A DNA stretch of 31,601 nt from Minisyncoccota bacterium (GTDB taxonomy: Bacteria; Patescibacteriota; Minisyncoccia; Minisyncoccales; UBA10102). The notes below the pieces were generated by a model. That model was not told where the DNA came from. It did no database searches and saw only the letters and a list, made by a program, of their open reading frames with translations. Where the stretch lies: contig DASWIZ010000038.1 in the NCBI GenBank assembly GCA_036397395.1, positions 1 through 31,601 of the forward strand, written 5' to 3'. The position numbers and the translations under genes were made by a program. This document shows, piece after piece, positions 286 to 26,123 of this stretch. Positions within the stretch are counted from its first letter, which is position 1. Every line of letters begins with the position of its first letter.

Positions 286-918
286 TTAAGGAGATAGTGG
301 GTTTGCCACTATCTTTTTAAGTTTCGGCTTGATCATCTCAAACCATTTCTGGTTATTCTGCATAAGCTGGTAAAACACGCCGCATATGTGATCGGCCAGC
401 TGGAGATTAAGCAGTTCTGAAGTTTGAAACTGAATGCGGAAGTGTTTATCAGGGTATTTTTGGGCAAGCTCGGATTGCAATACGCTGATAATATCTCCGC
501 GCTTAAGAAGTCTAGGGCGATACGTATCCATTGTAGTAACAACAATCTCTTCATCGTGATAATCCCACTCATTGACCAGCAGAATTTTTAGCAAGTCTAA
601 ATACAGTTTGTCGTAAAGCAGTTGATCTTTCGCAAAGTAGTCGTGCGGCAGCTGGTGTTTGATTTGGGTAATTGCGTAGATTTGAACGTCTTCTGCCTGA
701 AGCTCCCGAAATAGCTTTGGTTTGAAAGCCCTATCAGCCAGGGGGTTGGTGCTTTTGATTTCTCGAGTGATTAGTTTCTTAGGGAGAGTATGTTTTTTGA
801 TTCGGTTGAACACTTTGGCGATTCTTGCCGGGTCAGACGTTGCGAAACCGGCAATTATCAGAAATTGATTTTCCGTGCCGCGTTTGAGCTGGAATGACTC
901 GTCGAGGTAAATATACAT
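286..918 (-). CDS. DUF3800-family protein
   Basis: The N-terminus MYIYLDESF matches the YIxxDESG signature of DUF3800. The ORF is 210 aa and diverges from the 968 gene across a 49-bp shared promoter region. Confidence 0.5.
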   Translation of the reverse strand: MYIYLDESFQLKRGTENQFLIIAGFATSDPARIAKVFNRIKKHTLPKKLITREIKSTNPLADRAFKPKLFRELQAEDVQIYAITQIKHQLPHDYFAKDQLLYDKLYLDLLKILLVNEWDYHDEEIVVTTMDTYRPRLLKRGDIISVLQSELAQKYPDKHFRIQFQTSELLNLQLADHICGVFYQLMQNNQKWFEMIKPKLKKIVANPLSP

Positions 919-967
919 ACTTGTTCAAAGTATAGCATATTTCCCGCAAAGGATTTATAATACCCTA

Positions 968-3900
968 ATGCATCGAATTCTCGTTGTAGCAACAGTCTTG
1001 TGCGGCGTAACTCTTCTTGCCCTGCAGGTTTTTGTGCTTGGAGTTTTCTTTTTTTCATTGCGTACAGCGCAAGCCGCTCCTCCGCCGTGCGACGGCACAT
1101 GGAATACTCCCGGGCAGTACGACTGCGTTGTGCCGCCCGGAGTTACTTCAATCGATGTTGAAGTAATGGGTGCCCAGGGAAGTCATCTTGGAGGAAATGG
1201 AGGAGCGGTAAGTACCGTGCTTTCCGGGCTTACGCCAGGCGAAACGCTCCATCTTTTTGTTGGGGGCGAAGGATCTGGCGGGGGAACTACCATTCCTGCT
1301 GGCGGTTTCAACGGCGGAGGCGATGGTGGAAGCGGGCCCGGCGCATTTGCCTATACCGCTCACGGAGGCGGAGGCGGGGGCGGTTCCGACATACGCCGGG
1401 GCGGCAGCGCGCTAGCCGATCGTATCGTGGTCGCCGGAGGAGGAGGCGGAGGCGGAACCAACTATTTCGCTCCTTCCGGACTCGGTGGCGAAGGAGCCTA
1501 CTCAAACGGAGAAAATGGACTGAATGGACAATTCTGTCCACCCCTAGGCTCAAGGGATGGCGGTTGTGGTCACGGAGGCGGAGGCGGAACGCAAGGGAGT
1601 GGGGGAACAGGAGGAACAAGGGGAGTTGGCGGTATCCCGGGAGGCGCATGGGGCAACAACGGTATAAGCGGCTCCGCTGGCGTTGGCGGCAAGGGTGGCG
1701 ATGGTGTTGGCGGTTCCAATAGTGGTCTTTCGGGAGGCGGCGGAGGCGGGGGTTGGTACGGCGGCGGCGGCGGCGGATCAGGAGGTGCGGCGACCACTGC
1801 CGTTGGCTCAGGCCAGCCAGGACACGGAGGAGGCGGCGGCGGCGGATCTAGCTTTGTAAACCCCGCGATTGGCAACAATACGGTTTACACAAATGGGTTT
1901 CGGCTCGGCAACGGCAAAATCATCATTACCTCCCCCTCGAAGTATGCTGCCCCAACAGCTGATTCCATTACCATACCGCCTGGTTGGTACAACGGAAATT
2001 TTCAGGTAAACTATACAGCTTCCGGCGGTTTATGTGAACTGTGGACAAAAGACGGGTCTGATCCCTGGACAAAAAGGGCTGACGTGACTTGCGGCGCAAA
2101 TAAAACGGCCGCCGTTCAAGTTCCCGCGTGGTGTAGTACAACAGGGGTTGGCCAATGCGGAGTGCGTGTTGTGGCAAACCCAGGACCCGCGCCCCAGCAA
2201 GTTTTTTACTTCACGGGGGGGCCGCAGCCCTGGACCGTGCCTCCCGGAGTTACCGAGATACAAATTGATATACGAGGCGCGGAGGGAGAATCCAGCTTTG
2301 TAAGTAACGGCTATGCCGCTGATTCTGGGCCGGCAGGCAAGGGGGGGCGCGTACAGGCAACCATTCCCGTTACTCCACTCGAAATCCTTGAACTTTACGT
2401 AGGCGGAAAAGGTTGGGGCACAGGAAACGGATGGAATGGAGGAGCAAGTGGAGGAGCGGTTATAGGTGGGGCCGGTACCGGAGGAGGCGGTTCCGACATA
2501 CGCCGGGGCGGAAACGCGCTAGCCGATCGTATCGTGGTCGCCGGAGGAGGAGGGGGAGCTGGCAGAGGACTTAACGCTGGCGGCGGAACTGGAGGAAATG
2601 GAGGAGGGGCGTTTAACGCCGCGGATGGACAAATAGGCGGAAAGTTTGCTGGTAACCCTGGTGGAGGCGGGGGAGCAGGAACACTAACAGGAGGAGGCAA
2701 TGGGGGCTTGTCAGGCGGGTTTCCGTTCGGTTACGGCGATATGGGAACATTTGGAAACGGGGGCGCCGGGGGTTCGCACGTCTTTCCTCCTCCCGCATCA
2801 TTTTTTTCCATACCCGGAGGCGGAGGCGGAGGCGGATATTACGGAGGCGGAGGCGGGGGAATGGGCGCGTATGATGTTGGGGACCCTTACGGAGCTGGCG
2901 GAGGCGGAGGCGGAGGCGGATCCAGCTACTGCGATCCCGATCCCGCTGTATGCGGCGGCGTAACGCACGCGCAGGGCTACCAAGGAGGCAACGGCCAGAT
3001 TATTGTGAGCTATATTGTGTCGGGTGCTGGCCCGTCAGTGGAAGGCTTTGCGGATATGGATTTTGAGGCTCCCACCATCGCCAGCTTCACTGCCACAGAC
3101 GGCGTAACCACGGGAGACGTAAACACCCCTCTTGCGGCAGACACTCCCTCCATTACCCTCGCATGGGCAGGCAACGACGCTCCCGGAGGCTCCGGGCTGG
3201 ATCACTACGAAGTATGGCGCAGTCCAGACGGAATGGGAGGCTGGACTAAGATAAGCTCAAACCTGCCTCCCGCCACCACCACCTTCTCTGACGCTCCCGG
3301 AAGCGGAGACTGGTGGTATGGCGTGCGCGCCCTAGACAAGGCCCTGCCTTCTGGCAACTGCATTACCGAAGCCGGCGGCCACTCGTGCGGAGGAGTGGGG
3401 TCAGACGCGTTTGACCCCCGCGCCGTGGTAGGCCCCATCATCGTGCAAATCAACGATCCTCCCAAAGTGGATGCCGGGGGAAACCAAACCATGGACTTCC
3501 CCGGCGCCATTACGCTTGACGGCGCCGTAACAGACGACGGCCTTCCCAACCCTCCCGGAGCGGTAACCACCCTGTGGAGCGTGGTAAGCGGCCCCGGGGC
3601 CGTTACCTTTGCGGACCCCGCTTCCATAGACACGACCGCCTCCTTTACCGTGGAGGGTGTGTATGTGCTGCGCTTGGAGGCGAACGACGGCAAGGCTTCC
3701 GCTTCAGACGAGATTACCATCGGCCCCACGCCTTACGGGCTGGTGCCCTGCGGGGTGGACCGGAACGACCCGAGCACGCCGTATGACGAAACAGATGCAT
3801 GCACGTTTAATCACGTCTTTCTTTTGCTCTGGAACGTGGTGAACTTCGCGCTATGGAAACTGGCGCCGCTTCTTATTGTCATTATGGTGGTGCTTTCCGG

Positions 3901-4084
3901 CGTTATTATGTATTTCCAGCTGGGCGACGTAAATACTTTGGTGCTGGTAAAACGCATTTGGCGGTACGTTGGCATTGGCGTGCTTGTGCTGTTATTTTCC
4001 TGGCTTGCGCTAAACTTTTTCCTGGGCATTTTAGGTTTTAACATAAACATCTTTGGCCAGTGGTTTCAGATAAACCTTAATTAA
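968..4084 (+). CDS. Large secreted, membrane-anchored glycine-rich surface protein. It has two Gly-rich beta-type domains, an FN3-like domain, a PKD/Ig-like domain and a C-terminal two-helix hydrophobic hairpin.
   Basis: N-terminal signal/TM segment (VVATVLCGVTLLALQVFVLGVFFF). Two copies of the module VPPGVTxI..V.GAxG...GGGGGSDIRRGG(S/N)ALADRIVVAGGGGG. FN3-like stretch YEVWRSPDGMGGWTKIS..WWYGVRALD. PKD-like stretch VDAGGNQTMDFPGAITLDGAVTDDG...VEGVYVLRLEANDG. The C-terminus holds two predicted TM helices (LAPLLIVIMVVLSGVIMYF and VGIGVLVLLFSWLALNFFLGILGF). A TATAAT at 951-956 lies just upstream. Confidence 0.7.
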   Translation: MHRILVVATVLCGVTLLALQVFVLGVFFFSLRTAQAAPPPCDGTWNTPGQYDCVVPPGVTSIDVEVMGAQGSHLGGNGGAVSTVLSGLTPGETLHLFVGGEGSGGGTTIPAGGFNGGGDGGSGPGAFAYTAHGGGGGGGSDIRRGGSALADRIVVAGGGGGGGTNYFAPSGLGGEGAYSNGENGLNGQFCPPLGSRDGGCGHGGGGGTQGSGGTGGTRGVGGIPGGAWGNNGISGSAGVGGKGGDGVGGSNSGLSGGGGGGGWYGGGGGGSGGAATTAVGSGQPGHGGGGGGGSSFVNPAIGNNTVYTNGFRLGNGKIIITSPSKYAAPTADSITIPPGWYNGNFQVNYTASGGLCELWTKDGSDPWTKRADVTCGANKTAAVQVPAWCSTTGVGQCGVRVVANPGPAPQQVFYFTGGPQPWTVPPGVTEIQIDIRGAEGESSFVSNGYAADSGPAGKGGRVQATIPVTPLEILELYVGGKGWGTGNGWNGGASGGAVIGGAGTGGGGSDIRRGGNALADRIVVAGGGGGAGRGLNAGGGTGGNGGGAFNAADGQIGGKFAGNPGGGGGAGTLTGGGNGGLSGGFPFGYGDMGTFGNGGAGGSHVFPPPASFFSIPGGGGGGGYYGGGGGGMGAYDVGDPYGAGGGGGGGGSSYCDPDPAVCGGVTHAQGYQGGNGQIIVSYIVSGAGPSVEGFADMDFEAPTIASFTATDGVTTGDVNTPLAADTPSITLAWAGNDAPGGSGLDHYEVWRSPDGMGGWTKISSNLPPATTTFSDAPGSGDWWYGVRALDKALPSGNCITEAGGHSCGGVGSDAFDPRAVVGPIIVQINDPPKVDAGGNQTMDFPGAITLDGAVTDDGLPNPPGAVTTLWSVVSGPGAVTFADPASIDTTASFTVEGVYVLRLEANDGKASASDEITIGPTPYGLVPCGVDRNDPSTPYDETDACTFNHVFLLLWNVVNFALWKLAPLLIVIMVVLSGVIMYFQLGDVNTLVLVKRIWRYVGIGVLVLLFSWLALNFFLGILGFNINIFGQWFQINLN
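1381..1447. repeat. Near-identical ~67-bp direct repeat, copy 1, inside the Gly-rich gene (encodes GGSDIRRGGSALADRIVVAGGGGG)
   Basis: cggttccgacatacgccggggcgg..gcgctagccgatcgtatcgtggtcgccggaggagg recurs at 2488-2554 with about 3-5 mismatches. Confidence 0.8.
2488..2554. repeat. Near-identical ~67-bp direct repeat, copy 2, inside the Gly-rich gene
   Basis: Same sequence as 1381-1447, with aaac in place of cagc and a divergent 3' end. Confidence 0.8.
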
Positions 4085-6635: not shown

Positions 6636-6687
6636 TACTTTTACATATATTCTTGTGTTTCTTTTGAGAGATGTTTATAATTATATA

Positions 6688-8790
6688 ATGCCAACAAAAA
6701 AGATTTTTCTCTCTTTGTTTCTTGGAGTTAGTATTTTTGCTCTGCTTGCAGCTCCGTTGCAGGCGTCTGCATGTTGGGCGATATTTCAATGGGCTTGTGA
6801 TATCGGTGGCAATCTTGTAGAAGACATAGCTCGTTTGATTGTATCTGCGGTCACCATTACTACTGGCCTTATTTTCTTTTTGGTTGCTGGTGTTACCAAC
6901 TGGATTATTACGACTCTTATAAATGTTGGCGTTGCACCAGGGGTTGGGCCGCAGTTTGTTACAGACGGATGGACGTTTTCGCGGAACTTTGTAAACATAT
7001 TCTTTTTGTTAATCCTTGTTTTTATCGGCCTTGCCACTATTTTACGCCTGCGCGAGTACGAGCTGCAAAAAACTCTGCCGCGGCTTATTGTTGTAGCGTT
7101 GCTGGTAAACTTTAGCGGCTTGCTGGTTGGCTTTTTGGCGGATGTTGGGAATATTATCACAGTATTCTTTACCCAGAATATTACAGGAGCTCCCGGCGCG
7201 GGTTTGGGTTCAAGTGCTTTCAGGCAGATTTTCAATGCAGGGGGCGATGCTACCACTCAAGCTTTTGCTAATGCTGGCGATCTTGCATCGGGATTTGCGG
7301 CTGCGCTTGCCATAGGAGCCGCCCTTGGGTTCTTTTTTATATTTGCCACTATTGCGTACCTGGCAATTGCTTTAGTATTTTTCTTGCGGCTGGTTATTTT
7401 GTGGGTGCTGGTAATTTTAGCGCCGTTTGCGTTCTTGTTTTCTATATTACCCATAACCAGAAAGTGGTGGAATCAATGGTTAGACGCGCTTATCCAGTGG
7501 AGTTTTATTACCGTGCCTTTGGCCTTTTTTATGTGGCTGGCAAACAACGTCTTGGCAAATCCAATCTCTAGCTTGAGTAGCGGGCCTTCCTTAACTGGCA
7601 ATATTTCTGGATGGTCAACTCTTATTGGTTTAATGATGTCGCCGTTTGTGGCCATTGTGCTGTTGTTTATCGGCCTTGGCATGTCCGCTTCCATGTCCGG
7701 GTTTATCCGCGGCGGCCTGCGCTTCGCCCGTCATGCCGGTGCCGTCGGCGTCGGCGTCCTGGGCGCCAACCTTATCCGCGACAAGTTTCTTGCGCGTTCA
7801 GCAAAAATGCAGCGCCTTGCAAATAGAATGGAAACATTTTCGTCTCGAGGCATGAGCGGAAGAAATGTAGTTGGCCAGACTCTTGGAAGAGCAGGTGCGC
7901 CACTTGTACGGTGGGCGGGCAGAAAAGTGGGATCTGAAACCCAGACAAAAGTTGCTGAAAATATAAAAAAGACGGAAGAGCAAGCAAAGAAGATGTCAGC
8001 CCAGGAAAAAGCCTCGAGGCTTCGCGGGAATATCGGGCTTGACGAAAAAATTGGCATATTAAACGTTGCGGCGCAACAAGGCGAGAGTGATGACGTTATT
8101 CGCGCCGGATTTAGCGAGCGAAGAATTATGGATGTGTACAACTCGGCCAGAAAAATAAACCAACATCAGGATATTCAGGCGGCCTTTCCTCATTTTGTTA
8201 CTGATGATGAACTTCAACAATCTCGCTTTGCTCGCGATTACAACCGCGCGCATCCAGGAGCTAACTTAAGACAAAATCAGGTTACCGCAACACAAGCAGC
8301 TACTGTTACTGCTGCGCAAGTAGTTGATGAGCGTATTCGTATGTACAGTCGAATGAAGCCTGAACGAGTAAAACAGATATCCGAAGGTGCTTTCAATAAC
8401 ACTCCTGGAGTAGGTGGCGCAGTGGGGCCAGGCCAAGAAGCTATGGACAGCATGCTGCTTGGGTTTAATGGCGCGCGGTTTGGCAATGTTGCTTCCGGTG
8501 ACAATGGGCAAGAAGCTGTACAAAACCTTCGCAACCGACTGCTATGGCATGCGACGAATACCACTTCTCCAACTCGTGTTAATCCCGCAGATCCTCGTAT
8601 AGCAGCAATTGTCGGGAGGGCGCCAGGTAGCGCTGGACCAGCTGACCCGGGCGCAGGACTTATGGCTCAACAAGGAATGACGGCAGCAGAAGCAACCGAA
8701 AGAGCACAAATGCGTATCTGGCTTATAAACAATGGAAACGAACCCCTTGCAAGATATCTGCAAGGAACAGGGGGACAAAATCTTTTCTAA
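6688..8790 (+). CDS. VirB6/TrbL-like polytopic membrane protein with a ~330-aa C-terminal hydrophilic domain
   Basis: ATG 6688 gives MPTKKIFLSLFLGVSIFALLAAPLQASA, a signal peptide. The GTG at 6655 is less likely. The first ~380 aa carry at least 6 hydrophobic helices. The C-terminus is polar and Ala/Gln-rich. The gene sits in a locus with VirB3-like and VirB4 genes. Confidence 0.5.
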   Translation: MPTKKIFLSLFLGVSIFALLAAPLQASACWAIFQWACDIGGNLVEDIARLIVSAVTITTGLIFFLVAGVTNWIITTLINVGVAPGVGPQFVTDGWTFSRNFVNIFFLLILVFIGLATILRLREYELQKTLPRLIVVALLVNFSGLLVGFLADVGNIITVFFTQNITGAPGAGLGSSAFRQIFNAGGDATTQAFANAGDLASGFAAALAIGAALGFFFIFATIAYLAIALVFFLRLVILWVLVILAPFAFLFSILPITRKWWNQWLDALIQWSFITVPLAFFMWLANNVLANPISSLSSGPSLTGNISGWSTLIGLMMSPFVAIVLLFIGLGMSASMSGFIRGGLRFARHAGAVGVGVLGANLIRDKFLARSAKMQRLANRMETFSSRGMSGRNVVGQTLGRAGAPLVRWAGRKVGSETQTKVAENIKKTEEQAKKMSAQEKASRLRGNIGLDEKIGILNVAAQQGESDDVIRAGFSERRIMDVYNSARKINQHQDIQAAFPHFVTDDELQQSRFARDYNRAHPGANLRQNQVTATQAATVTAAQVVDERIRMYSRMKPERVKQISEGAFNNTPGVGGAVGPGQEAMDSMLLGFNGARFGNVASGDNGQEAVQNLRNRLLWHATNTTSPTRVNPADPRIAAIVGRAPGSAGPADPGAGLMAQQGMTAAEATERAQMRIWLINNGNEPLARYLQGTGGQNLF

Positions 8791-9148: not shown

Positions 9149-10495
9149 TTAGCAAAGATATCCGTTGTCTTCCTTTGGCTGGACTGGCTCCTCTCCCTCC
9201 CTTAGTTGTTCGTTCACTTCGTGAAGGGCTTCGCCGACAGCCTCCAGGTTTTCGTCGGGCTTTGCCTGATTTGCCTGAAGCTTTTCCACTTGCTCGGTCA
9301 GTTTCGCTATTGCGTCCATGACTTCTGCTGTGTTCCCGGTTTCGGCCCCTCGCATTGCGCTCCCGAGCATATCAGAGAAGCCAGGGATAAACATAGCCTG
9401 TACCGCAGCTCCGGGCTGGCTGTTCCGGATGGTATCAAGAACTTGGTATAAGTGCCCCGAACTACTACCTTCCATTGCTTCGGTCACGCTTTTTAACGCA
9501 TCTGCCTGCCCCTTGGCTTCGGTTCTTAGGGCGTCTGCTTTCCCTTCAGCGCGCCTTATATCAACTTGGGCCTGGATGTTTGCCTCGGTGCGCTGCGTCG
9601 TAAGTTGGCGGTAATTACCACTTGGATCAACGCGGTACACCGAAAGTTCGGGAATGGCTACACCGTAAATCTCCTCAAACTCTACTTTAAAAAGATCTTT
9701 CTCGTTTGTTTCGACGAGCGATTCTTCCCCTTTTTCTCCTTGGTAACGCCAACCTTGCAGGATTTTAGTAAACGCGTCGCCCATGGCGTCCGTATGGGTA
9801 ATCCAGTCATCGTGGCTTCGGTATGTAACTACGTTCCTGGATTCGGCAGCGATGCGCGCAATGATAACTTGCAGCCAGACTCCTGGCCGGGCGCCGGTTC
9901 GAAATAGCGCTTTAAAGGGATTGATGATCTGTACGGTTAGCAGAAGCTGGATATCCAGCGGTACGAGGTCTTTCGCTTCTGCCTCTTTGATCTCGCACCA
10001 GTATACGTCGCGGGCCAGCGGGACATAGTCTACTTCGCCGCTAAGTTCACGGATATTGCCGTGCTCGTCTACTACGGACCTACGCCAGTCGTAACCGAAA
10101 ATTTTCTTGGCGTTAACGAGCGGATTCTCAAACCAGTGAGCTCCAAACAACATTCTGTATCGCCCTGGATATCTTTCCCCCGGATTGTTGTCCTTTATGT
10201 TCCCGTCCCCGTCAAGATGCTTTCCCTCGAATTGCATAATTTCCCCGGCCACCTCTCCGCCGAGGGTAATGAATTTCATTGAACCTTCGTTCACGAACGT
10301 AAACCCTTTGTTCTGCTCAGCTAGTTTTATTACCCAGTCTGCCGCGATTGGTCGCCAGAGAATAGCCCCGGTTCCAATGAGTAATGCCGAAAGTACTATT
10401 AGGGTAATTCCTAAGGCACCAGTGCCAAGGAAAATCCCAATAATCAGCACAAAAAAAGCCCAGATAAGTGTTCCACAAAATAGCGAATTTAACAT
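9149..10495 (-). CDS. SPFH/Band-7 (stomatin/flotillin-like) domain membrane protein
   Basis: N-terminal TM. Central region typical of SPFH (QLLLTVQIINPFKALF...RNVVTYRS...). C-terminus is a coiled coil rich in AEGKADALRTEAKGQADAL. A consensus minus-strand promoter lies upstream. Confidence 0.7.
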   Translation of the reverse strand: MLNSLFCGTLIWAFFVLIIGIFLGTGALGITLIVLSALLIGTGAILWRPIAADWVIKLAEQNKGFTFVNEGSMKFITLGGEVAGEIMQFEGKHLDGDGNIKDNNPGERYPGRYRMLFGAHWFENPLVNAKKIFGYDWRRSVVDEHGNIRELSGEVDYVPLARDVYWCEIKEAEAKDLVPLDIQLLLTVQIINPFKALFRTGARPGVWLQVIIARIAAESRNVVTYRSHDDWITHTDAMGDAFTKILQGWRYQGEKGEESLVETNEKDLFKVEFEEIYGVAIPELSVYRVDPSGNYRQLTTQRTEANIQAQVDIRRAEGKADALRTEAKGQADALKSVTEAMEGSSSGHLYQVLDTIRNSQPGAAVQAMFIPGFSDMLGSAMRGAETGNTAEVMDAIAKLTEQVEKLQANQAKPDENLEAVGEALHEVNEQLREGEEPVQPKEDNGYLC

Positions 10496-10560: not shown

Positions 10561-10577
10561 GCCAGGCGGTTTTTTGG

Positions 10578-10607
10578 AGTTTGGGCGGATTTGGGTTGAT
10601 TTGGGTT
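10578..10607. repeat. Three tandem ~10-bp direct repeats (g/a)tttggg(c/t)(g/t)g upstream of the 10625 gene
   Basis: gagtttgggcg / gatttgggtt / gatttgggtt, read directly. Confidence 0.5.
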
Positions 10608-10624
10608 TGTGGTACACTGGTTTT

Positions 10625-11080
10625 ATGCGTATGCCAAATGAATCCCTCCACTCGTTACATAAAAGGTACATTCGGGGAACACAACCAAAAGCAATTGTAG
10701 AAAACAAAAAGGTTTTCTTGTGCTATCTTACGGCTGCTGTCCATAAGGGCGGTGGCTTCTCGACGCGCAATGTGTATATCACTACGAAAGTGCTCAAACA
10801 CATGTACGACAAAAAGCCGGCCGAAGAATACGATTTTCTGCTTGTACACTTGCCCCAGCTTATAAAGTACCCGGATCATATCTATGAAAATAGAAATGGC
10901 AAACGAGGCAACATTTGTTTTACCAAAAGTATAAAAAACCAGCAATACTTTTGTTCGCTGGAAGATGACACGGAAGCACAAGAGATTATGATAGTAACCG
11001 CTTACCGCATTCGTGATAAGAAGTACCTCGAGAAATATAGCCTGTTGTGGAGCTGGAGGGACGACGCCCCCTCATCGTAG
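10625..11080 (+). CDS. Hypothetical protein. Possible PBECR-like (Barnase/EndoU/RelE-like) nuclease domain.
   Basis: ATG 10625 (MRMPNESL) is in frame with the track ORF. The motif VYITTKVLKHMYDKKPAEEYDFLLVHLPQLIKYPDHIY...KRGNICFTK...IMIVTAYR resembles the phage-associated PBECR nuclease family. This assignment is tentative. Confidence 0.35.
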   Translation: MRMPNESLHSLHKRYIRGTQPKAIVENKKVFLCYLTAAVHKGGGFSTRNVYITTKVLKHMYDKKPAEEYDFLLVHLPQLIKYPDHIYENRNGKRGNICFTKSIKNQQYFCSLEDDTEAQEIMIVTAYRIRDKKYLEKYSLLWSWRDDAPSS

Positions 11081-12668: not shown

Positions 12669-13187
12669 ATGGCGCAATACACCAAAGAACAATACTGGGC
12701 AATATACGAAAAACTTCCCCAGGAACTAAAAGAGGCGGTGTTTTCCAACGAGGTGGCAGAGCACATTGCGACAGCGTGCGAGCGGAACAACGTGCAGGAA
12801 ATGTCGCAGGTTGCCGCCGCGGTTGGCGACGTGTTAATGGGCGTTACCAAACCAAGCGATTTCCAGCAGGCGCTGCAAAAAGAAGTGGGGTTACAGTTGT
12901 CTGTCGCGCAGGCCGTGGCCCAGGAACTGAACCGGTTTGTGTTTTATCCGGTAAAAGCGCAGTTGGAAGACATTCACCGCGTTCCCGCGGAGCAGCCAGA
13001 GCGGGCAAAAGATATTGGAGTTGCGACCCCCCGGCACGAAGGTGAGCGCAGAACAGCAACACCGCCAGAACCACAGCCCGAAGATGATTATCTTATTGCA
13101 GAGGAGGCCGAGCAACGGCAAGAAGAGGAAATTGTGGAGCAACCAAACCCTCAAGAATCAGATCAGTATAGGGAAAAACCGGAATAA
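12669..13187 (+). CDS. Hypothetical protein with an acidic C-terminal tail, immediately upstream of the VirB3-like gene
   Basis: ATG 12669 (MAQYTKEQYW) lies downstream of promoter copy C. The track start at 12624 is a TTG inside the promoter. Its stop overlaps the next ATG (TAATG). Confidence 0.4.
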   Translation: MAQYTKEQYWAIYEKLPQELKEAVFSNEVAEHIATACERNNVQEMSQVAAAVGDVLMGVTKPSDFQQALQKEVGLQLSVAQAVAQELNRFVFYPVKAQLEDIHRVPAEQPERAKDIGVATPRHEGERRTATPPEPQPEDDYLIAEEAEQRQEEEIVEQPNPQESDQYREKPE

Positions 13188-13606
13188 TGGCGCAATTTGA
13201 AACTCCACAATTTATTGACCGGGAAGCGAAAGTAATAGGCCCGCTTACCTTTAAAAGGGCGGCATATTTGGGTATTCCTTTAGCCGTTATTTTCGCGCTG
13301 TATTTTGTTATGGCGGCAGACAACTTTATTTTGTTTGTGGCCATTTCCATTCTTTTGGAAGGCGGCGGTGTTGCCCTGGCGTTTATAAAACTGGAGGGAA
13401 AAAGCATTCCGGAAATGATTATGAACGCGCTTTTCTTTCTGGTGCGGCCCAAAACATTTGTGTGGAAACGGGGCAATACAAAGCTTACGTACAAAAAAGA
13501 AGAGTATATTAACCCGTATACGGGACCGGAAGGCTTGCCAAAAGACCAGCTTACCCAAAAAAGCAGAATGGCTGACTTGTCCCTAAGAGTTCAAACAAAG
13601 AAATAG
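13187..13606 (+). CDS. VirB3/TrbD/PrgI-like small membrane protein
   Basis: 139 aa with two adjacent TM helices (LGIPLAVIFALYFVMAADNFILFVAISILLEGGGVALAFI). It sits immediately upstream of virB4, the canonical VirB3 position. Confidence 0.5.
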   Translation: MAQFETPQFIDREAKVIGPLTFKRAAYLGIPLAVIFALYFVMAADNFILFVAISILLEGGGVALAFIKLEGKSIPEMIMNALFFLVRPKTFVWKRGNTKLTYKKEEYINPYTGPEGLPKDQLTQKSRMADLSLRVQTKK

Positions 13607-14086
13607 TCCTACGAATTACGAATTCGCGCGAATATACGAATACCCTATTTTATGACGCAATCAACGCTAAGGAGAAACGACTTGATCCATCCGGAGCTAA
13701 GCTATCAAATCGTAGGAATACTCTTTGATGTTTCTAACGAACTTGGGCACGGTTACCAAGAAAAGCATTATCAAAAAGCGATAGCAGCGGCTCTTCAGAA
13801 AGCAGGTATCGCGTACACGGAGCAAGCGCCTGTTCAGATAAACTACAAAGGCGAAAAAGTGGGCATCTACTTCCTTGACTTCCTTATAGAAAATAAAATT
13901 GTCCTTGAAATTAAAAGAGGTGAGTACTTTTCCAAAACTAACCTAAAACAAGTTTCTGGCTATTTAAAAGCAACTGGTTTACAATTAGGGATAGTGGCGA
14001 ACTTTACCGCCAATGGTTTGAAGTTTAAGAGAATCGTCTGCGCTAATCAATATTCGTAAATTCGTATTTATTCGTAATTCGTAGGA
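13607..14086. mobile_element. 480-bp cassette bounded by imperfect ~36-bp terminal inverted repeats (outer 17 bp perfect: TCCTACGAATTACGAAT) and carrying a GxxExxY gene
   Basis: Left end is tcctacgaattacgaattcgcgcgaatatacgaata at 13607-13642. Right end is tattcgtaaattcgtatttattcgtaattcgtagga at 14051-14086. The reverse complement of the right end matches the left end over the outer 17 bp. The cassette starts one base after the virB3-like stop and ends 3 bp before the virB4 N-terminal ATG. Confidence 0.6.
13652..14059 (+). CDS. GxxExxY-family protein (PD-(D/E)XK nuclease superfamily)
   Basis: The motifs are readable in the 135-aa product (..GYQEKHYQKA.., ..LDFLIENKIVLEIKRGEYF..). Confidence 0.65.
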   Translation: MTQSTLRRNDLIHPELSYQIVGILFDVSNELGHGYQEKHYQKAIAAALQKAGIAYTEQAPVQINYKGEKVGIYFLDFLIENKIVLEIKRGEYFSKTNLKQVSGYLKATGLQLGIVANFTANGLKFKRIVCANQYS

Positions 14087-14089
14087 TTT

Positions 14090-14782
14090 ATGGCAAGTTC
14101 TGCTCAAGAATTTTTAGAATTCCAAGATGTCCGCGAAGGCACCATGGTGTTGAAAGACCGCTCCATCCGGGGCATTATGTTAGTGTCGTCCACGAACTTT
14201 GCCTTAAAGTCGCAGGAAGAACAAGACGCCATTGTGTACCAATTCCAAAACTTTTTAAACTCGCTGGATTTTTCCATTCAAATTACCATTCAGTCGCGGC
14301 GGCTGAACATTACCGGGTATATTGACCGATTAAAAGCGCTGGAACAAGAACAAACCAATACCTTGCTGCGCGAGCAAACGGCAGAGTACCGCAAATTCGT
14401 GGAAACGCTTATCGCGGGAGGTTCCATTTTGGCGAAAAACTTTTTTGTGGTAGTGCCGTTTACTCTTATAGAGGCGAATCCCGACGCAAGCCAGACAACC
14501 GCGGGAACGCTGTTTAGGTCAAAGCCAAAGCTGGTGGGAAAGTTAACGGATGACGAGTTTGAGCGCATGAAAACCCAGTTGTGGCAGCGTATGGAGTTTG
14601 TTGCGCTGGGCCTGCGCCGCATGGGCTTGCACGTGGCTCCGTTAAATTCAGAGGAAATTATTGAGCTGTTGTGGACTTGGTACCACCCGGAAGACGCGGA
14701 AGTCGGCTACTATCCGGAAATTCCCCCAGAGATGCTGCAGCAACGAGTGCAAAAGAATGGCCCCTCGACAAACTCGAGGTAA
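14090..14782 (+). CDS. virB4: VirB4/TrbE N-terminal domain, encoded as a separate 230-aa ORF
   Basis: TMVLKDRSIRGIMLVSSTNFALKSQEEQDAIVYQFQNFLNSL parallels the VirB4 N-terminus (LLEDGSIMSIARIDGVAFELEEIE..). It ends at TAA 14780-14782. The remainder of VirB4 continues in another frame from 14797. Confidence 0.55.
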   Translation: MASSAQEFLEFQDVREGTMVLKDRSIRGIMLVSSTNFALKSQEEQDAIVYQFQNFLNSLDFSIQITIQSRRLNITGYIDRLKALEQEQTNTLLREQTAEYRKFVETLIAGGSILAKNFFVVVPFTLIEANPDASQTTAGTLFRSKPKLVGKLTDDEFERMKTQLWQRMEFVALGLRRMGLHVAPLNSEEIIELLWTWYHPEDAEVGYYPEIPPEMLQQRVQKNGPSTNSR

Positions 14783-14796
14783 AAACACACATACAT

Positions 14797-22725: not shown

Positions 22726-24066
22726 ATGATAAAAAAGATTTTGTTTGTTTTTGTACTACTCGCCGTTGTTGCCCCGATTTTCGCATTCGCCCAAATCAAC
22801 CTGAACCTGGATTACCCCACGTTCGGCGGCGTAGACCTGAACACCAACCAGAACCTAAACACCGTTGTCGCCTGGCTGTACTATTTCTTTGTGGGCATCG
22901 CCGGCCTTGCAGCTTTTGTCATGATCGTGTGGGGAGGCATACAGTGGTTAACCTCGGGAGCCATCCCATCCCAAGCTTCTGAAGCCCGCGACAAACTGCG
23001 AGCCGCCATACTGGGACTTCTTCTTGTTTTAGCCTCGTTCCTTATCATACAGGTCATAAACCCCCAGCTTACCCTGTTAAACCAGCCCGGCCTAACCCAG
23101 TTCTTTGGCACAAACCCAACCCTTGACCTCCCAAGCTCCGGCGGCGGAGGATTTAGCGGCCCTGCCGGAGTAACAGCTCCTGGCATATACCTCTGTAGAG
23201 ATATTAACTGTACTTGCACAAATCCGGGCAACTGTGAAGAAGCAGTAGACTTTAACAACCCCATAAATCCTGGAGGGAACGACTATGTATACATTGACCC
23301 CGCAGCATTTCCTGGCGGAGCAATCTTTGACCTTGATAATTCAGCTCCTATATTAAACTGGGGAGATGAAGTAAGCGCTATTGGTATTATCGGCAACTCG
23401 GCGGTTCGCGCGAACAGAGACCAAAACTTTACAGCCATGGGTATTTGTTTTAACGGCGGAGTCGCAGATCTTAAAAAGTATCTTATGCAGGAAGATGTCT
23501 TTTTTATGGATGATGACTGGAATGACGCAATACACAGTATAGCTTTTTTCCCTCTGGGAACTCCAAATGGATGTCAAGACCCTAATCTTACCTTAGATAA
23601 GGATGCTCCGACTCCAGGAGTATCACACTTTCGACCCCAGCCAGCAGTATACCTTATCAATAAAACAGGATACGGAACAAGTGGTAATCCGCATTGGACT
23701 CCAGTTAATTACTACTGGCCAAACAGTACGGCTGATAGATTCAACCCTACACATAATAGTATTGACTGGCCGTCCCAATACAACTCTGTCGAACTTTCTG
23801 TATGGATAACCAGTGCTTCTGTCTGCGGTTCTGCAGGAAACGAAACATGTGCGGTAAAGTTCTATGAAGACACCGACATTATTACATCAGACACGGCTCC
23901 CGACTCTACTCACCAGACTATTTGTTTTAACCAATCAATGCCAGATCTTCTATTGTATACACTCCCACCCGCCCCAGACCTTCACCAGTCAGGGGTTGTA
24001 AAACAAGTTCGAGCCATACCGGCTTCTCAATGCCCACCCGCTATACACGCCCAAGTACAAGGCTAA
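22726..24066 (+). CDS. Secreted protein with an N-terminal VirB2/TrbC-pilin-like domain (signal peptide plus two TM helices) fused to a ~330-aa Cys-containing extracellular domain
   Basis: Signal peptide MIKKILFVFVLLAVVAPIFAFAQ. Two helices follow (VVAWLYYFFVGIAGLAAFVMIVWGGIQWL and ILGLLLVLASFLIIQVI). The C-terminal domain has at least 10 Cys and N/P/T-rich loops. Confidence 0.45.
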   Translation: MIKKILFVFVLLAVVAPIFAFAQINLNLDYPTFGGVDLNTNQNLNTVVAWLYYFFVGIAGLAAFVMIVWGGIQWLTSGAIPSQASEARDKLRAAILGLLLVLASFLIIQVINPQLTLLNQPGLTQFFGTNPTLDLPSSGGGGFSGPAGVTAPGIYLCRDINCTCTNPGNCEEAVDFNNPINPGGNDYVYIDPAAFPGGAIFDLDNSAPILNWGDEVSAIGIIGNSAVRANRDQNFTAMGICFNGGVADLKKYLMQEDVFFMDDDWNDAIHSIAFFPLGTPNGCQDPNLTLDKDAPTPGVSHFRPQPAVYLINKTGYGTSGNPHWTPVNYYWPNSTADRFNPTHNSIDWPSQYNSVELSVWITSASVCGSAGNETCAVKFYEDTDIITSDTAPDSTHQTICFNQSMPDLLLYTLPPAPDLHQSGVVKQVRAIPASQCPPAIHAQVQG

Positions 24067-24166
24067 CCCCTTACCTTAATGACAACACGGCGGGCGGGGT
24101 TCTTCGTCCACGCTTTCTAAAACCAGGGAGGTGGAATTTTGGTTGGTTTTGTGGTATGGTTGGGTA

Positions 24167-24628
24167 ATGCAAGAGATTATCCAGAAAAACCAAAAAGAAT
24201 TGCAGGAAATCTTCCAAAGGGGAGGGGTGGTTTTGGCATACCTGTTCGGCTCGCAAGTTCGCGGCACAACCCATCATTTCTCTGATATTGATATTGGCTT
24301 GTTGCTCGACAAGGATATCTCCAAGGACGCATATTTTGACAAAACCTTGGAGCTTGGGGGCAAGCTTGAGCATATCTTTGGCACCGAACATGTTGACGTG
24401 GCGGTCTTGAACCAGGCAAAACCTTTCTTGCGCTATCAAGTTATTTTTGGCGGCAAGCTTTTGTTTGAGAAAAATGCGGCTATAAGAATATTTTATGAAA
24501 ACAACGTAATGAAAGAATACCAAGATACCAAACATATTCTTCAGTTCTCGCTCAACGCCATGAAAGAAAGAATAAAGAGGGGTTCCTTTGGCATTAATCC
24601 GCGATCTGCTTATGGCCCCAGAAGTTAA
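24167..24628 (+). CDS. Minimal nucleotidyltransferase (MNT/Pol-beta superfamily) protein. Likely an antitoxin-type gene with no intact HEPN partner.
   Basis: LFGSQVRGTTHHFSDIDIGLL is the GS..D.D nucleotidyltransferase motif. The start is ambiguous: ATG 24167, TTG 24143 or the track GTG 24131. No downstream ORF follows. Confidence 0.6.
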   Translation: MQEIIQKNQKELQEIFQRGGVVLAYLFGSQVRGTTHHFSDIDIGLLLDKDISKDAYFDKTLELGGKLEHIFGTEHVDVAVLNQAKPFLRYQVIFGGKLLFEKNAAIRIFYENNVMKEYQDTKHILQFSLNAMKERIKRGSFGINPRSAYGPRS

Positions 24629-24760
24629 ATCTTCCATAATTTCCAAACTGCGCCAGCCATTTTTCGGGAGTTCGCGGGCGCGTTTAATGAGTTTCTCGAA
24701 AAAACCGACTAAACTTTCAGTTTAATCACCACGCGGGGATAGAGCATCTAGCCTGGCAGG

Positions 24761-24789
24761 TTGACAAGAAATGGGGGTTGTGATACATT
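24761..24789 (+). promoter_or_regulatory. Promoter (TTGACA, 17 nt, TACATT) upstream of nusA, with a ~150-nt leader
   Basis: ttgacaagaaatgggggttgtgatacatt. Confidence 0.45.
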
Positions 24790-24941
24790 TGACGTATTGA
24801 ATGAGATGTCCGCGACGCGGGCATTTATTTGTAAAAGCACGAAGCACGAAATCCGAAGCACGAAACAAGTTTTGAATTTATATATATTTTGGTATTTGAA
24901 TTTGTTTCGAATTTCGATATTCGTATTTCGAATTTAATTAC

Positions 24942-26123
24942 ATGATTGATTTTAAAAATTTCGGCGTATTGTTAGACAGTATTGCGGAGGAAAAAGGGCT
25001 TTCCAAGGAAAAAGTGCTGGAAACGGTGGAACAAGCCCTGGCCGCGGCCTACAAAAAAGAATTTGGCAAACGAGGCCAAAACATTAAAGCATCCTTGGAT
25101 TTGGCAACAGGGAATGTTGAGTTTTGGCAAATAAAACAGGTGGTGGACGAAAGCATGATTTATTCAGAGGAAGAACTGGAAGCAATGAAAGCAAAAGAAG
25201 GCGAGATCGAAGAAGAACCCGCCCTAGAGGAGGCTGAAGAAGGCAAGAAAATCCGCTTTAACCCGGAACGGCATATTATGGCAGAAGACGCGAAAAAAGA
25301 GCAAAAAAACGCCAAAGTGGGGGAAGAAGTTGAACTAAAATTGGATTCAAAAACCGACTACGGAAGAATTGCCGCCCAAACCGCAAAACAGGTTATACTG
25401 CAAAAAATTCGGGAAGCGGAACGAGAGTCTATTTTAGACGAATTTGAATCGAAAGAAGGCGAGCTGGTTTCCGGCGTGGTACAGCGCGTGGAGGGGCGCA
25501 TGGTGTTTGTCGACTTGGGCAAAACGCTTGGGTTGTTGTTGCAGGAAGAACAGGTGCCGGGGGAGTTTTACCGGATTGGGCAGCGCCTGAAGTTTTATGT
25601 ACTGAAAGTAGAGGATTCTCCCAAAGGGCCCTCGGTATTTCTTTCCCGGGCATACCCCAAATTTATTTCAAAGTTATTTGAACTTGAGGTTCCCGAAACT
25701 GCCGCGGGAACAGTAGAAATAAAAGGAATAACCAGGGAACCGGGTTCCCGGACAAAGATAGCGGTAACCTCAAGCGCGGACGGGGTGGATCCGGTAGGAT
25801 CTATGGTTGGCCAGCGCGGCACCAGGGTATCGGCGGTCATTAACGAACTGGGAGGGGAAAAAATTGACATTATTGAATGGGCCCAGGATCCGGAAGTGTA
25901 TATTGCAAACGCATTGTCTCCCGCAAAGGTTTTACAAGTCGAAATTGAGGAAAAAAATAAGGCGCAAGCGATAGTTGCAGAAGACCAGCTGTCTTTGGCA
26001 ATTGGACGGGACGGCCAAAACGTCAGGCTGGCCGCAAAGCTTACGGGCTGGAAAATTGACGTGCGAACTCCCGAAGGAAACGTGCAGAAAACCGGAGAAC
26101 CGGAAACAGAGTCTGAAGAATAA
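24942..26123 (+). CDS. nusA: Transcription termination/antitermination factor NusA
   Basis: N-terminal domain, S1 domain (GELVSGVVQRVEGRMVFVDLG) and two KH domains (GSRTKIAVTS..VDPVGSMVGQRGTRV..; AIGRDGQNVRLAAKLTGWKIDV). Confidence 0.9.
   Translation: MIDFKNFGVLLDSIAEEKGLSKEKVLETVEQALAAAYKKEFGKRGQNIKASLDLATGNVEFWQIKQVVDESMIYSEEELEAMKAKEGEIEEEPALEEAEEGKKIRFNPERHIMAEDAKKEQKNAKVGEEVELKLDSKTDYGRIAAQTAKQVILQKIREAERESILDEFESKEGELVSGVVQRVEGRMVFVDLGKTLGLLLQEEQVPGEFYRIGQRLKFYVLKVEDSPKGPSVFLSRAYPKFISKLFELEVPETAAGTVEIKGITREPGSRTKIAVTSSADGVDPVGSMVGQRGTRVSAVINELGGEKIDIIEWAQDPEVYIANALSPAKVLQVEIEEKNKAQAIVAEDQLSLAIGRDGQNVRLAAKLTGWKIDVRTPEGNVQKTGEPETESEE

Follow-up and report, generated by a model that had tools for sequence, protein, structure and literature searches.

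A probable VirB2-like pilin with a strain-variable C-terminal cassette in a Patescibacteria type IV secretion system locus

The pilin gene and its locus

The 31,601-nucleotide (nt) contig DASWIZ010000038.1 (assembly GCA_036397395.1, from an ultra-small bacterium of the CPR/Patescibacteria, a Minisyncoccota member of the lineage Patescibacteriota; Minisyncoccia; Minisyncoccales; UBA10102), hereafter called the window, is by its gene content a Patescibacteria type IV secretion system (T4SS) locus, in which one gene alone can clearly be read as a pilin gene. This gene, the target of our analysis, occupies positions 22726–24066 of the forward strand, begins with ATG and specifies 446 residues. It probably encodes the VirB2-like pilin of the locus, a member of the Pfam family PF18895 (T4SS_pilin), in a bimodular form. 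The T4SS genes that precede it, all on the forward strand, are a VirB6/TrbL-like polytopic membrane protein at 6655–8790 (Pfam TrbL, E-value (E) 7.3e-9, 36.1 bits); a PrgI/VirB3-like protein at 13187–13606, whose own Pfam PrgI match is weak (E 0.0029) and whose orthologs in the related loci L006 and L007 carry PrgI; a TraC-like/TrsD-like T4SS protein at 14090–14782, matched below the curated cut-offs of NCBIfam (VirB4_plasma, E 5.9e-8; TrsD, E 0.0067), with positional orthologs that carry PF26593; and, at about 14797–18711 with a presumed start codon, a VirB4-type ATPase containing a LAGLIDADG-endonuclease intein (Pfam P-loop_TraG, TraC_F_IV, Intein_splicing and LAGLIDADG_3). A membrane protein at 20218–21123 stands between VirB4 and the target. 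Its C-terminal ~130 residues correspond by tblastn to a conserved protein of ~140–160 residues that lies between VirB4 and the pilin elsewhere, with E 1e-15 to 1e-17 against the proteins of L005 and L006.

The target protein consists of a signal peptide, a conserved two-helix hairpin of ~95 residues, a flexible linker of ~20–35 residues and a beta-rich region of ~300 residues. Its Kyte–Doolittle profile has three hydrophobic segments (residues 1–22, ~47–75 and ~91–111) and none further toward the C-terminus. The first, recognized by its hydropathy peak and an AXA motif, is a Sec-type signal peptide (22726–22791) with predicted cleavage at AFA/Q; the leader reads MIKKILFVFVLLAVVAPIFAFA↓Q, lacks the G↓F/M-x-x-x-E motif of class III signal peptides, and has a hydrophobic equivalent in all aligned homologs. 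The mature protein would then start with a conserved, presumably extracellular segment (residues 23–46; 22792–22863; motif LNLDYPxFG), in which L26, N27, L28, Y30, P31 and F33 are invariant in the homolog alignment, and which is also found in stand-alone short pilins. The PF18895 module proper (residues 42–111; 22849–23058), delimited by Pfam and AlphaFold2, comprises transmembrane helix 1, a basic loop (SQASEARDKLR) and transmembrane helix 2; the stretch joining the two helices is TSGAIPSQASEARDKLR, and AlphaFold2, run on the full-length protein with a 15-sequence alignment, places the helices at 44–79 and 81–111 with a predicted local distance difference test score (pLDDT) of about 70–76. 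There follow an INPQLT motif and its tail (residues 111–129; 23056–23112), at the first part of which stand-alone pilins end, and a Gly/Pro-rich linker of low pLDDT (residues 130–147; 23113–23166; PSSGGGGFSGPAG). The model has pLDDT below 50 at residues 112–142, as expected of a disordered linker, and is beta-rich beyond, and the linker is conserved in homologs as QPGL..FFG..P. Since several sources record an identical protein (NCBI metagenome-assembled genome 'Candidatus Paceibacterota', VGA53_04375; annotated hypothetical) and the whole architecture is common to about a dozen independent homologs, the target is not an assembly artefact.

The assignment to PF18895 is carried by a match to residues 42–111 at E 1.3e-9 and 38.4 bits (gathering cut-off 26.6), over profile positions 3–71 of 71, and by the layout characteristic of that family, a signal peptide and two hydrophobic helices with a short charged loop between them. 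The uncleaved signal-anchor plus single transmembrane segment of an unrelated family, which a preliminary description of this DNA had named as the refuting alternative, does not hold, because PF18895 is matched above threshold and AlphaFold2 returns a two-helix hairpin. A hidden Markov model (HMM) built from the N-terminal modules (N-modules) of 66 homologs scores the target at 178 bits and finds no other pilin-module open reading frame (ORF) over all six frames of the window; the N-module profile retrieves 479 proteins, many of which are stand-alone pilins of 106–145 residues at 46–70% identity. The NCBIfam family NF045849 (Mbov_0395 family, the 'pilin-like conjugal transfer protein' of mycoplasma integrative and conjugative elements) aligns with residues 41–112 below its cut-off (E 2e-6, 27.4 bits vs 40), a likeness that is suggestive only. 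With 446 residues and a 330-residue extension the target departs from the ~100–145-residue, single-domain size that the literature describes for PF18895, small size being a descriptive trait of these pilins and not part of the definition of the Pfam domain.

Conserved neighbours, which the preliminary description had proposed as a check, tie the gene to its position. The loci L003, L006 and L007 share the order VirB4, ~140-residue membrane protein, pilin gene, jag/yidC/rnpA/dnaA, and the pilin slot is filled in L003 by a 441-residue homolog with the C-terminal domain of the target and in L006 and L007 by stand-alone pilins of 144 and 125 residues. Fusions of 375 residues in L004 (the sole pilin-module gene of the target's type there, adjoining an 823-residue protein without Pfam match) and of 369 residues in L005 (a single PF18895 gene, adjoining a 1266-residue protein without Pfam match) add two further long forms. 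The window retains the order VirB4, membrane protein, pilin, with toxin–antitoxin and DUF3800 genes interposed, and related loci have one pilin-module ORF each, with four exceptions among 80 species loci. The short pilins stop 3–17 residues past INPEL(T), for instance with INPELTLLKNP and INPELTLLREPG, and the extension of the target starts near there. Because stand-alone pilins thus hold the same slot and end near the point where the extension begins, the target is best regarded as the pilin of the locus with an addition and not as a chance hairpin protein.

The C-terminal region and its replacement between alleles

Beyond the pilin part, the preliminary description had seen some 330 residues with at least 10 Cys and rich in Asn, Pro and Thr. 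The protein has exactly 10 Cys, none of them before residue 157 (157, 162, 164, 170, 241, 283, 367, 375, 400 and 436), and the composition of the C-terminal 330 residues agrees (Pro 9.4%, Gly 8.8%, Asn 8.2%, Asp 7.9%, Thr 7.3%). Across homologs, C164/C170, C367/C375 and C400/C436 are pairwise jointly present or jointly absent, and the number of Cys past the pilin module is even in 66 of the 66 homologs with the INP motif; from this paired, even-numbered pattern we infer disulfides and hence an extracytoplasmic location. The PF18895 match, the T4SS neighbourhood, the positional orthology and the paired Cys together bear out the original picture of a signal peptide and pilin-type hairpin fused to a large Cys-rich domain.

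Structure prediction of the C-terminal domain yields a beta-rich, crystallin-like Greek key at moderate confidence. A beta-gamma-crystallin-like domain 1 (residues ~148–292; 23167–23601, forward strand), with invariant C157, C162, C241 and C283, appears to be followed by a probable second Greek-key domain (residues ~305–440; 23638–24045, forward strand), an internal duplicate of the first modelled with lower confidence. Domain 1 aligns with domain 2 in hhalign at probability 63% and E 7e-5, and a 40-nt direct DNA repeat (23442–23481 and 23919–23958, 477 nt apart) seems to reflect the same internal duplication. The predicted C-region forms a double Greek-key beta-sandwich, Foldseek on its models returns matches at probability about 1.0, with the two-domain Protein S aligned over about 290 columns, and the sequence contains the Greek-key signatures NWGDEVSAIGI and DDWNDAIHSIAF. 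Thus, the region holds at least one, and probably two, domains of beta-gamma-crystallin type. Against this assignment speak the mean pLDDT of only moderate confidence (61.6 in the full-length model, 66.6 when the C-region was modelled by itself), the weak Foldseek E-values (about 3e-3 to 1e-2), the lack of any Pfam crystallin family at E ≤ 1, and the degeneration of the Ca-binding motif N/D-N/D-x-x-S/T-S, which reads GDEVSA (213–218) and NDAIHS (266–271) in the target and NDKV(K/S)(S/A) in homologs. Compared with the microbial beta-gamma-crystallins (Myxococcus Protein S, clostrillin, flavollin, spherulin 3a, APP), to which it has no sequence-profile match, the domain would be set apart by its presumed disulfides, its long Asn/Pro-rich loop insertions, that degenerate Ca motif and its fusion to a membrane hairpin.

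Relatives of the domain are few. An exhaustive HMMER scan of 1.84 billion representatives gives 15 matches at E ≤ 1e-3, ten of them pilin-fused proteins of 334–482 residues in which the match starts around residue 145–170; among the 15 there is no clear case outside a pilin fusion, the other five being long multi-stretch proteins that were not examined. A word-indexed protein search with the domain returned only the target itself. With so few relatives, the C-domain is rare and fast-evolving, and among the full-architecture homologs identity to the target is 62–83% in the mature pilin module and 21–32% in the C-region.

Five alleles share 82–89% DNA identity through codon ~129 and are unrelated afterwards, the five-way DNA alignment having a sharp junction after ...TTCTTTGGCAC (codons 128–129). 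In window coordinates the junction falls at 23111–23118, and the loci L008, L009 and L010 break there too. The N-modules of the proteins P0002–P0005 are 87–94% identical to that of the target and their C-termini unrelated: a single crystallin-like domain (read from the sequence), Cys-rich domains without Pfam match, and a combination of PKD and GH30-type domains. By blastn, the window and L001, the locus of P0002, are 82% identical up to 23111, the similarity is then lost, and it is back at 24775; in L009 and L010 it returns at 24794–24997, just upstream of or within nusA. L001 is syntenic on both sides, with 95.5% DNA identity at the 3′ end of VirB4, a PIN gene upstream, and nusA, tig, clpP and rny downstream, and synteny on the nusA side is demonstrated for L001, L009 and L010. 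At least four of the five alleles occupy the same chromosomal site. Two alleles come from one sample, and the source metagenome ERZ27256803 holds two. The allele-specific segment (23112–24774), bounded by flanks conserved in related genomes, includes the C-terminal cassette and the downstream nucleotidyltransferase gene (24131–24628). These alignments present the C-terminal region as an exchangeable cassette, everything past codon ~129 being replaced and the pilin module and flanks kept. The simplest reading is that the conserved flanks recombine homologously and so replace the segment between them; no silent cassettes, shufflon-type inverted repeats or recombinase were found within 21900–25000, where the direct repeat of the two Greek-key domains is the only repeat of note.

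How general are such extended pilins? We took a census of one-genome-per-species contigs, of which the best 80 loci contain 91 pilin modules, and VirB4, TraC-like, PrgI or VirB6 genes lie within 6 kb of the module in 67 of the 80. More than 100 residues follow the module in 65 of the 91 cases and 30 or fewer in 22, the ratio being indicative only since the census was seeded with a profile from the target's own subfamily, which biases the long-form share as an estimate for all PF18895. Ten Pfam families are recognized among the 65 extensions: eight are peptidoglycan-active (VanY/M15, YkuD, SLT types, NlpC/P60), and the remaining two are Peptidase_C39_2 and DUF4185. Peptidase_M23 and SLT_3 are seen in other pilin-module matches, and glycosidase-type domains are also among the recognizable extensions. 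The records name chiefly Wildermuthbacteria, Paceibacterota, Nomurabacteria, Kaiserbacteria and taxa related to these. Sequence comparison places the target in a class of modular T4SS pilins that is widespread. The distinct design that the preliminary description saw in it differs indeed from canonical T4SS pilins, but it is not rare, extended forms outnumbering short ones in the sampled relatives.

Thirteen of the 22 short modules lie within two tandem arrays (L040, 3535–8068; L074, 129–4215), which have six to eight pilin-module ORFs each, nearly all short, and resemble the arrays reported for Saccharibacteria, although the 6 kb around either showed no VirB4. In three further loci (L065, 1288–3756; L069, 4585–6798; L086, 4984–7638) the module lies mid-frame, with 340–575 residues before it and 170–460 after, which suggests passengers on both sides, the start codons being putative.

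Display, anchoring or release of the cassette

If the target works as a pilin, its path might be the following. The protein would be inserted by Sec and lose its signal peptide, and the hairpin would be seated with both ends outside and the basic loop in the cytoplasm. The VirB4/VirB6 machine would treat this hairpin like that of a plain pilin, and the cassette would be exposed at the surface of the cell or along the exterior of a pilus-like conduit, because the C-terminus of conjugative pilins faces outward. Once displayed, it could act as a strain-specific contact or adhesion domain, or, in sister proteins, as a peptidoglycan-active enzyme, and homologous recombination, acting at the pilin module on one side and at the nusA flank on the other, would swap the cassette and thereby change contact specificity. 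Surface display is predicted from topology; export, the N-out/C-out hairpin, handling by VirB4/VirB6, incorporation into a filament and the tip or adhesin role that the preliminary description proposed are likewise conditional steps, and the domain is a candidate for the factor that decides with which cells the bacterium can make contact. The furthest-reaching version, a Paceibacteria-type T4SS pilus or wall-spanning conduit whose pilin subunits (every one or every nth) bear a swappable cassette as a host-range or contact-specificity switch of these episymbionts, exchanged at a fixed junction directly past the pilin C-terminus, we regard as unlikely; the cassettes may in that case be adhesin-like domains, of the crystallin or Ig kind, or enzymes that cut peptidoglycan.

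Several points weigh against the interpretation of the target as a filament-forming VirB2-like pilin, in addition to the seeding of the census. Filament formation by PF18895 proteins is called a possibility in the literature (PMC12857230), in which we found no experimental evidence of it for any member of the family. By our own informal geometric estimate, a domain of ~33 kDa on each subunit would crowd a conjugative-type pilus unless the linker accommodates it. The preliminary description had spoken of a VirB2/TrbC-type pilin; the pilin hairpin stands by way of the Patescibacteria family PF18895, but the TrbC/VirB2 profile PF04956 stays below its cut-off (10.6 bits vs 27.9, E 0.67). Searches of the N-module against PDB sequences gave only noise (E 0.8 or worse) and matched no solved pilin, and the fold matches of the helical hairpin are generic helical bundles, uninformative on pilin identity. 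The window being a 31.6-kb contig, further pilin genes elsewhere in the genome are possible.

Among known systems, the closest are the PF18895/VirB2-like pilins of Patescibacteria, described as small and often arrayed, and essential in Ca. Southlakia epibionticum (PMC10633639, PMC12102498, PMC12857230). They share with the target the hairpin module, the signal peptide, the adjoining VirB4, PrgI and VirB6, and a chromosomal T4SS locus without recognizable relaxase context (near dnaA in L003–L007). The described examples, however, often form tandem arrays of 2–11 genes, whereas the target is a single gene with a strain-swapped extension of ~330 residues. A survey that scored any PF18895 match as VirB2, with lengths unreported, stated that no adhesins were detected (PMC12102498), and no discussion of extended or modular T4SS pilins was found in the searchable literature on PF18895/VirB2-like pilins of Patescibacteria. 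The recurrent extended architecture of a known family and its signature of cassette exchange thus appear to have gone unremarked. TraA (of F), VirB2 and TrbC share the predicted topology of signal peptide, two helices, basic loop and both ends outside, and in the conjugative/F pilus the loop faces the lumen, with the termini of the pilin at the outer face of the filament (PMC5018250), the geometric condition for display of a C-terminal passenger. These pilins act in diderm envelopes, are about 65–75 residues when mature, without an extra domain, and are in some cases cyclised or acetylated, unlike the 446-residue target, which has no significant sequence match to them.

In design, the target resembles the modular type IV pilins such as PilB of Streptococcus sanguinis (PMC8179133), in which an adhesive module is grafted C-terminal to a pilin module, although these belong to an unrelated superfamily and machine and have a class III signal where the target has a Sec-type AXA leader. 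Pilins of this type are the nearest conceptual precedent by analogy, and the target is no member of them. In the R64 PilV shufflon adhesin and in polymorphic CdiA/Rhs proteins, as in the target, a constant N-terminal delivery or assembly part precedes a sharply delimited, interchangeable C-terminal specificity part. Unlike in those systems, no invertase, inverted repeats or orphan cassettes were found near the target, and the variation is seen between strains and not within a genome.

The main rival to the displayed pilin is that the hairpin has been co-opted as an N-out/C-out anchor for extracellular domains beside the T4SS and never polymerises, the enzymes among the passengers serving in a VirB1-like role on the cell's own wall. 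Many sister fusions do bear peptidoglycan hydrolases (SLT, M23, VanY, NlpC/P60, YkuD), which in monoderm T4SSs are normally membrane-anchored VirB1 analogues, and separate VirB1 homolog genes are rarely detected in Patescibacteria (PMC12102498); the tight packing of pilins is, moreover, hard to square with a bulky domain on each subunit. Yet the conservation of the module, 62–83% identical with many invariant residues in helices, loop and mature N-terminus, far exceeds what an anchor needs, and short and long forms share the slot after VirB4 and are usually the sole pilin gene of the locus, so that loci whose long form could not serve as the pilin would be left without one. On this evidence, we hold a mere anchor to be a doubtful explanation.

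Alternatively, the target may be a pro-protein that is cut near residue 115–131 into a normal short pilin and a released C-domain, with the pilin module as an export carrier. The stand-alone pilins do end, as described, 3–17 residues past INPEL, near the start of the extension, and the linker is both flexible and conserved. Furthermore, the P-type pilins TrbC and VirB2 are established cases of prepilin trimming at the C-terminus. A sister protein of 263 residues, P0122, has the same pilin module, a poly-Gly linker and, directly after it, a Hint/intein-like domain (CLAENT...HN, read from the sequence), which hints at autocatalytic processing or ligation at the pilin C-terminus. However, neither a protease gene nor a recognizable cleavage motif was identified, and a signal peptide suffices for secretion, which leaves the carrier hairpin superfluous; release of the domain strikes us as improbable. 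That the protein is no pilin at all, and instead begins with a generic signal-anchor and transmembrane segment from some unrelated family or is an artefact of fusion or frameshift, is scarcely tenable and already contradicted: it could appeal to the unmatched PF04956 and to the lack of matches to solved pilins or, in a tblastn search of the N-module against 72,556 plasmids, to plasmid-borne ones, but it founders on PF18895 above threshold, the 178-bit family score, the T4SS linkage of 67 of 80 related loci, the repeated recording of the identical protein by several sources and the existence of over 12 independent homologs of full length.

The T4SS is essential to the host-dependent life of Patescibacteria, and among the features of this monoderm T4SS its VirB2-like pilins are considered the most remarkable. 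If the pilin gene commonly bears a variable extracellular domain, the cassettes would be concrete, clonable candidates for host recognition and wall breaching. The sharp junction with strain-to-strain replacement provides a population-genetic signature, open to testing, of selection where symbiont and host meet. If true, a modular T4SS pilin would also mean that the principle of the modular pilin, established for type IV pili, holds for conjugative-type pilins, to which those are unrelated.

A second hairpin type and other genes of the window

A large Gly-rich/PKD surface protein at 968–4084 of the forward strand (Pfam ALK_LTK_GRD and PKD) ends in a second type of pilin-like hairpin, a GLVPCG...C motif with two transmembrane helices at about 3734–4081. 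The module is conserved in L003–L007 (L003, 1–175; L004, 13765–14196; L005, 12013–14340; L006, 1–541; L007, 173–2533), where it ends large Gly-rich/PKD/DUF642-type surface proteins of the T4SS loci and in L004 forms a stand-alone protein of 143 residues. The family of hairpin-anchored surface proteins that the preliminary description drew from this protein and the target finds weak support: the C-terminus of the 968 protein matches PF18895 below threshold (E 0.0082), hhalign relates the two hairpins at probability 72%, and reciprocal HMM cross-matches reach E of about 0.004, but the subfamily HMM gives no score, and we rejected the protein as a clear member of the target's pilin family. A distant relationship is suggested by these weak but consistent signals. 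If both hairpin types are homologous, passengers would be found on either end of the hairpin, which agrees with a topology that leaves both of its ends outside.

The interval from VirB4 to nusA (18715–22713 and 24131–24628) is a hot spot of defence and toxin–antitoxin genes: DUF3800 (with a second copy at 286–918), VapBC, an antitoxin and PIN pair, and an MNT-type nucleotidyltransferase, in place of which the syntenic L001 holds, at 609–3470, MazEF and a 755-residue protein. The antitoxin gene at 22020 is preceded, at 21985–22013, by a sequence that matches the sigma-70-type promoter consensus perfectly (TTGACA, 17 nt, TATAAT). The target gene begins 12 nt past the PIN stop codon, and the toxin–antitoxin pair and the pilin gene may be co-transcribed.

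The VirB4 intein (gene region 14671–18711) sits directly after the Walker A sequence GSGKS; the orthologs in L003–L007, of 589–629 residues, are intein-free. Two genes are inserted between VirB6 and the PrgI-like gene: one at 10574–11080 for a protein with a nuclease domain of the PBECR3 type (Barnase/EndoU/ColicinE5-RelE-like), and one on the reverse strand, at 9149–10495, for an SPFH/Band-7 protein. Finally, small genes for 23S_rRNA_IVP/Avd-like four-helix bundles recur at set positions of the T4SS loci (L003, 5696–6073 and 6578–6958; L006, 563–961 and 6344–6706; L007, 6252–6635), and the equivalent place in the window, 13652–14059, is taken by a PD-(D/E)XK gene.

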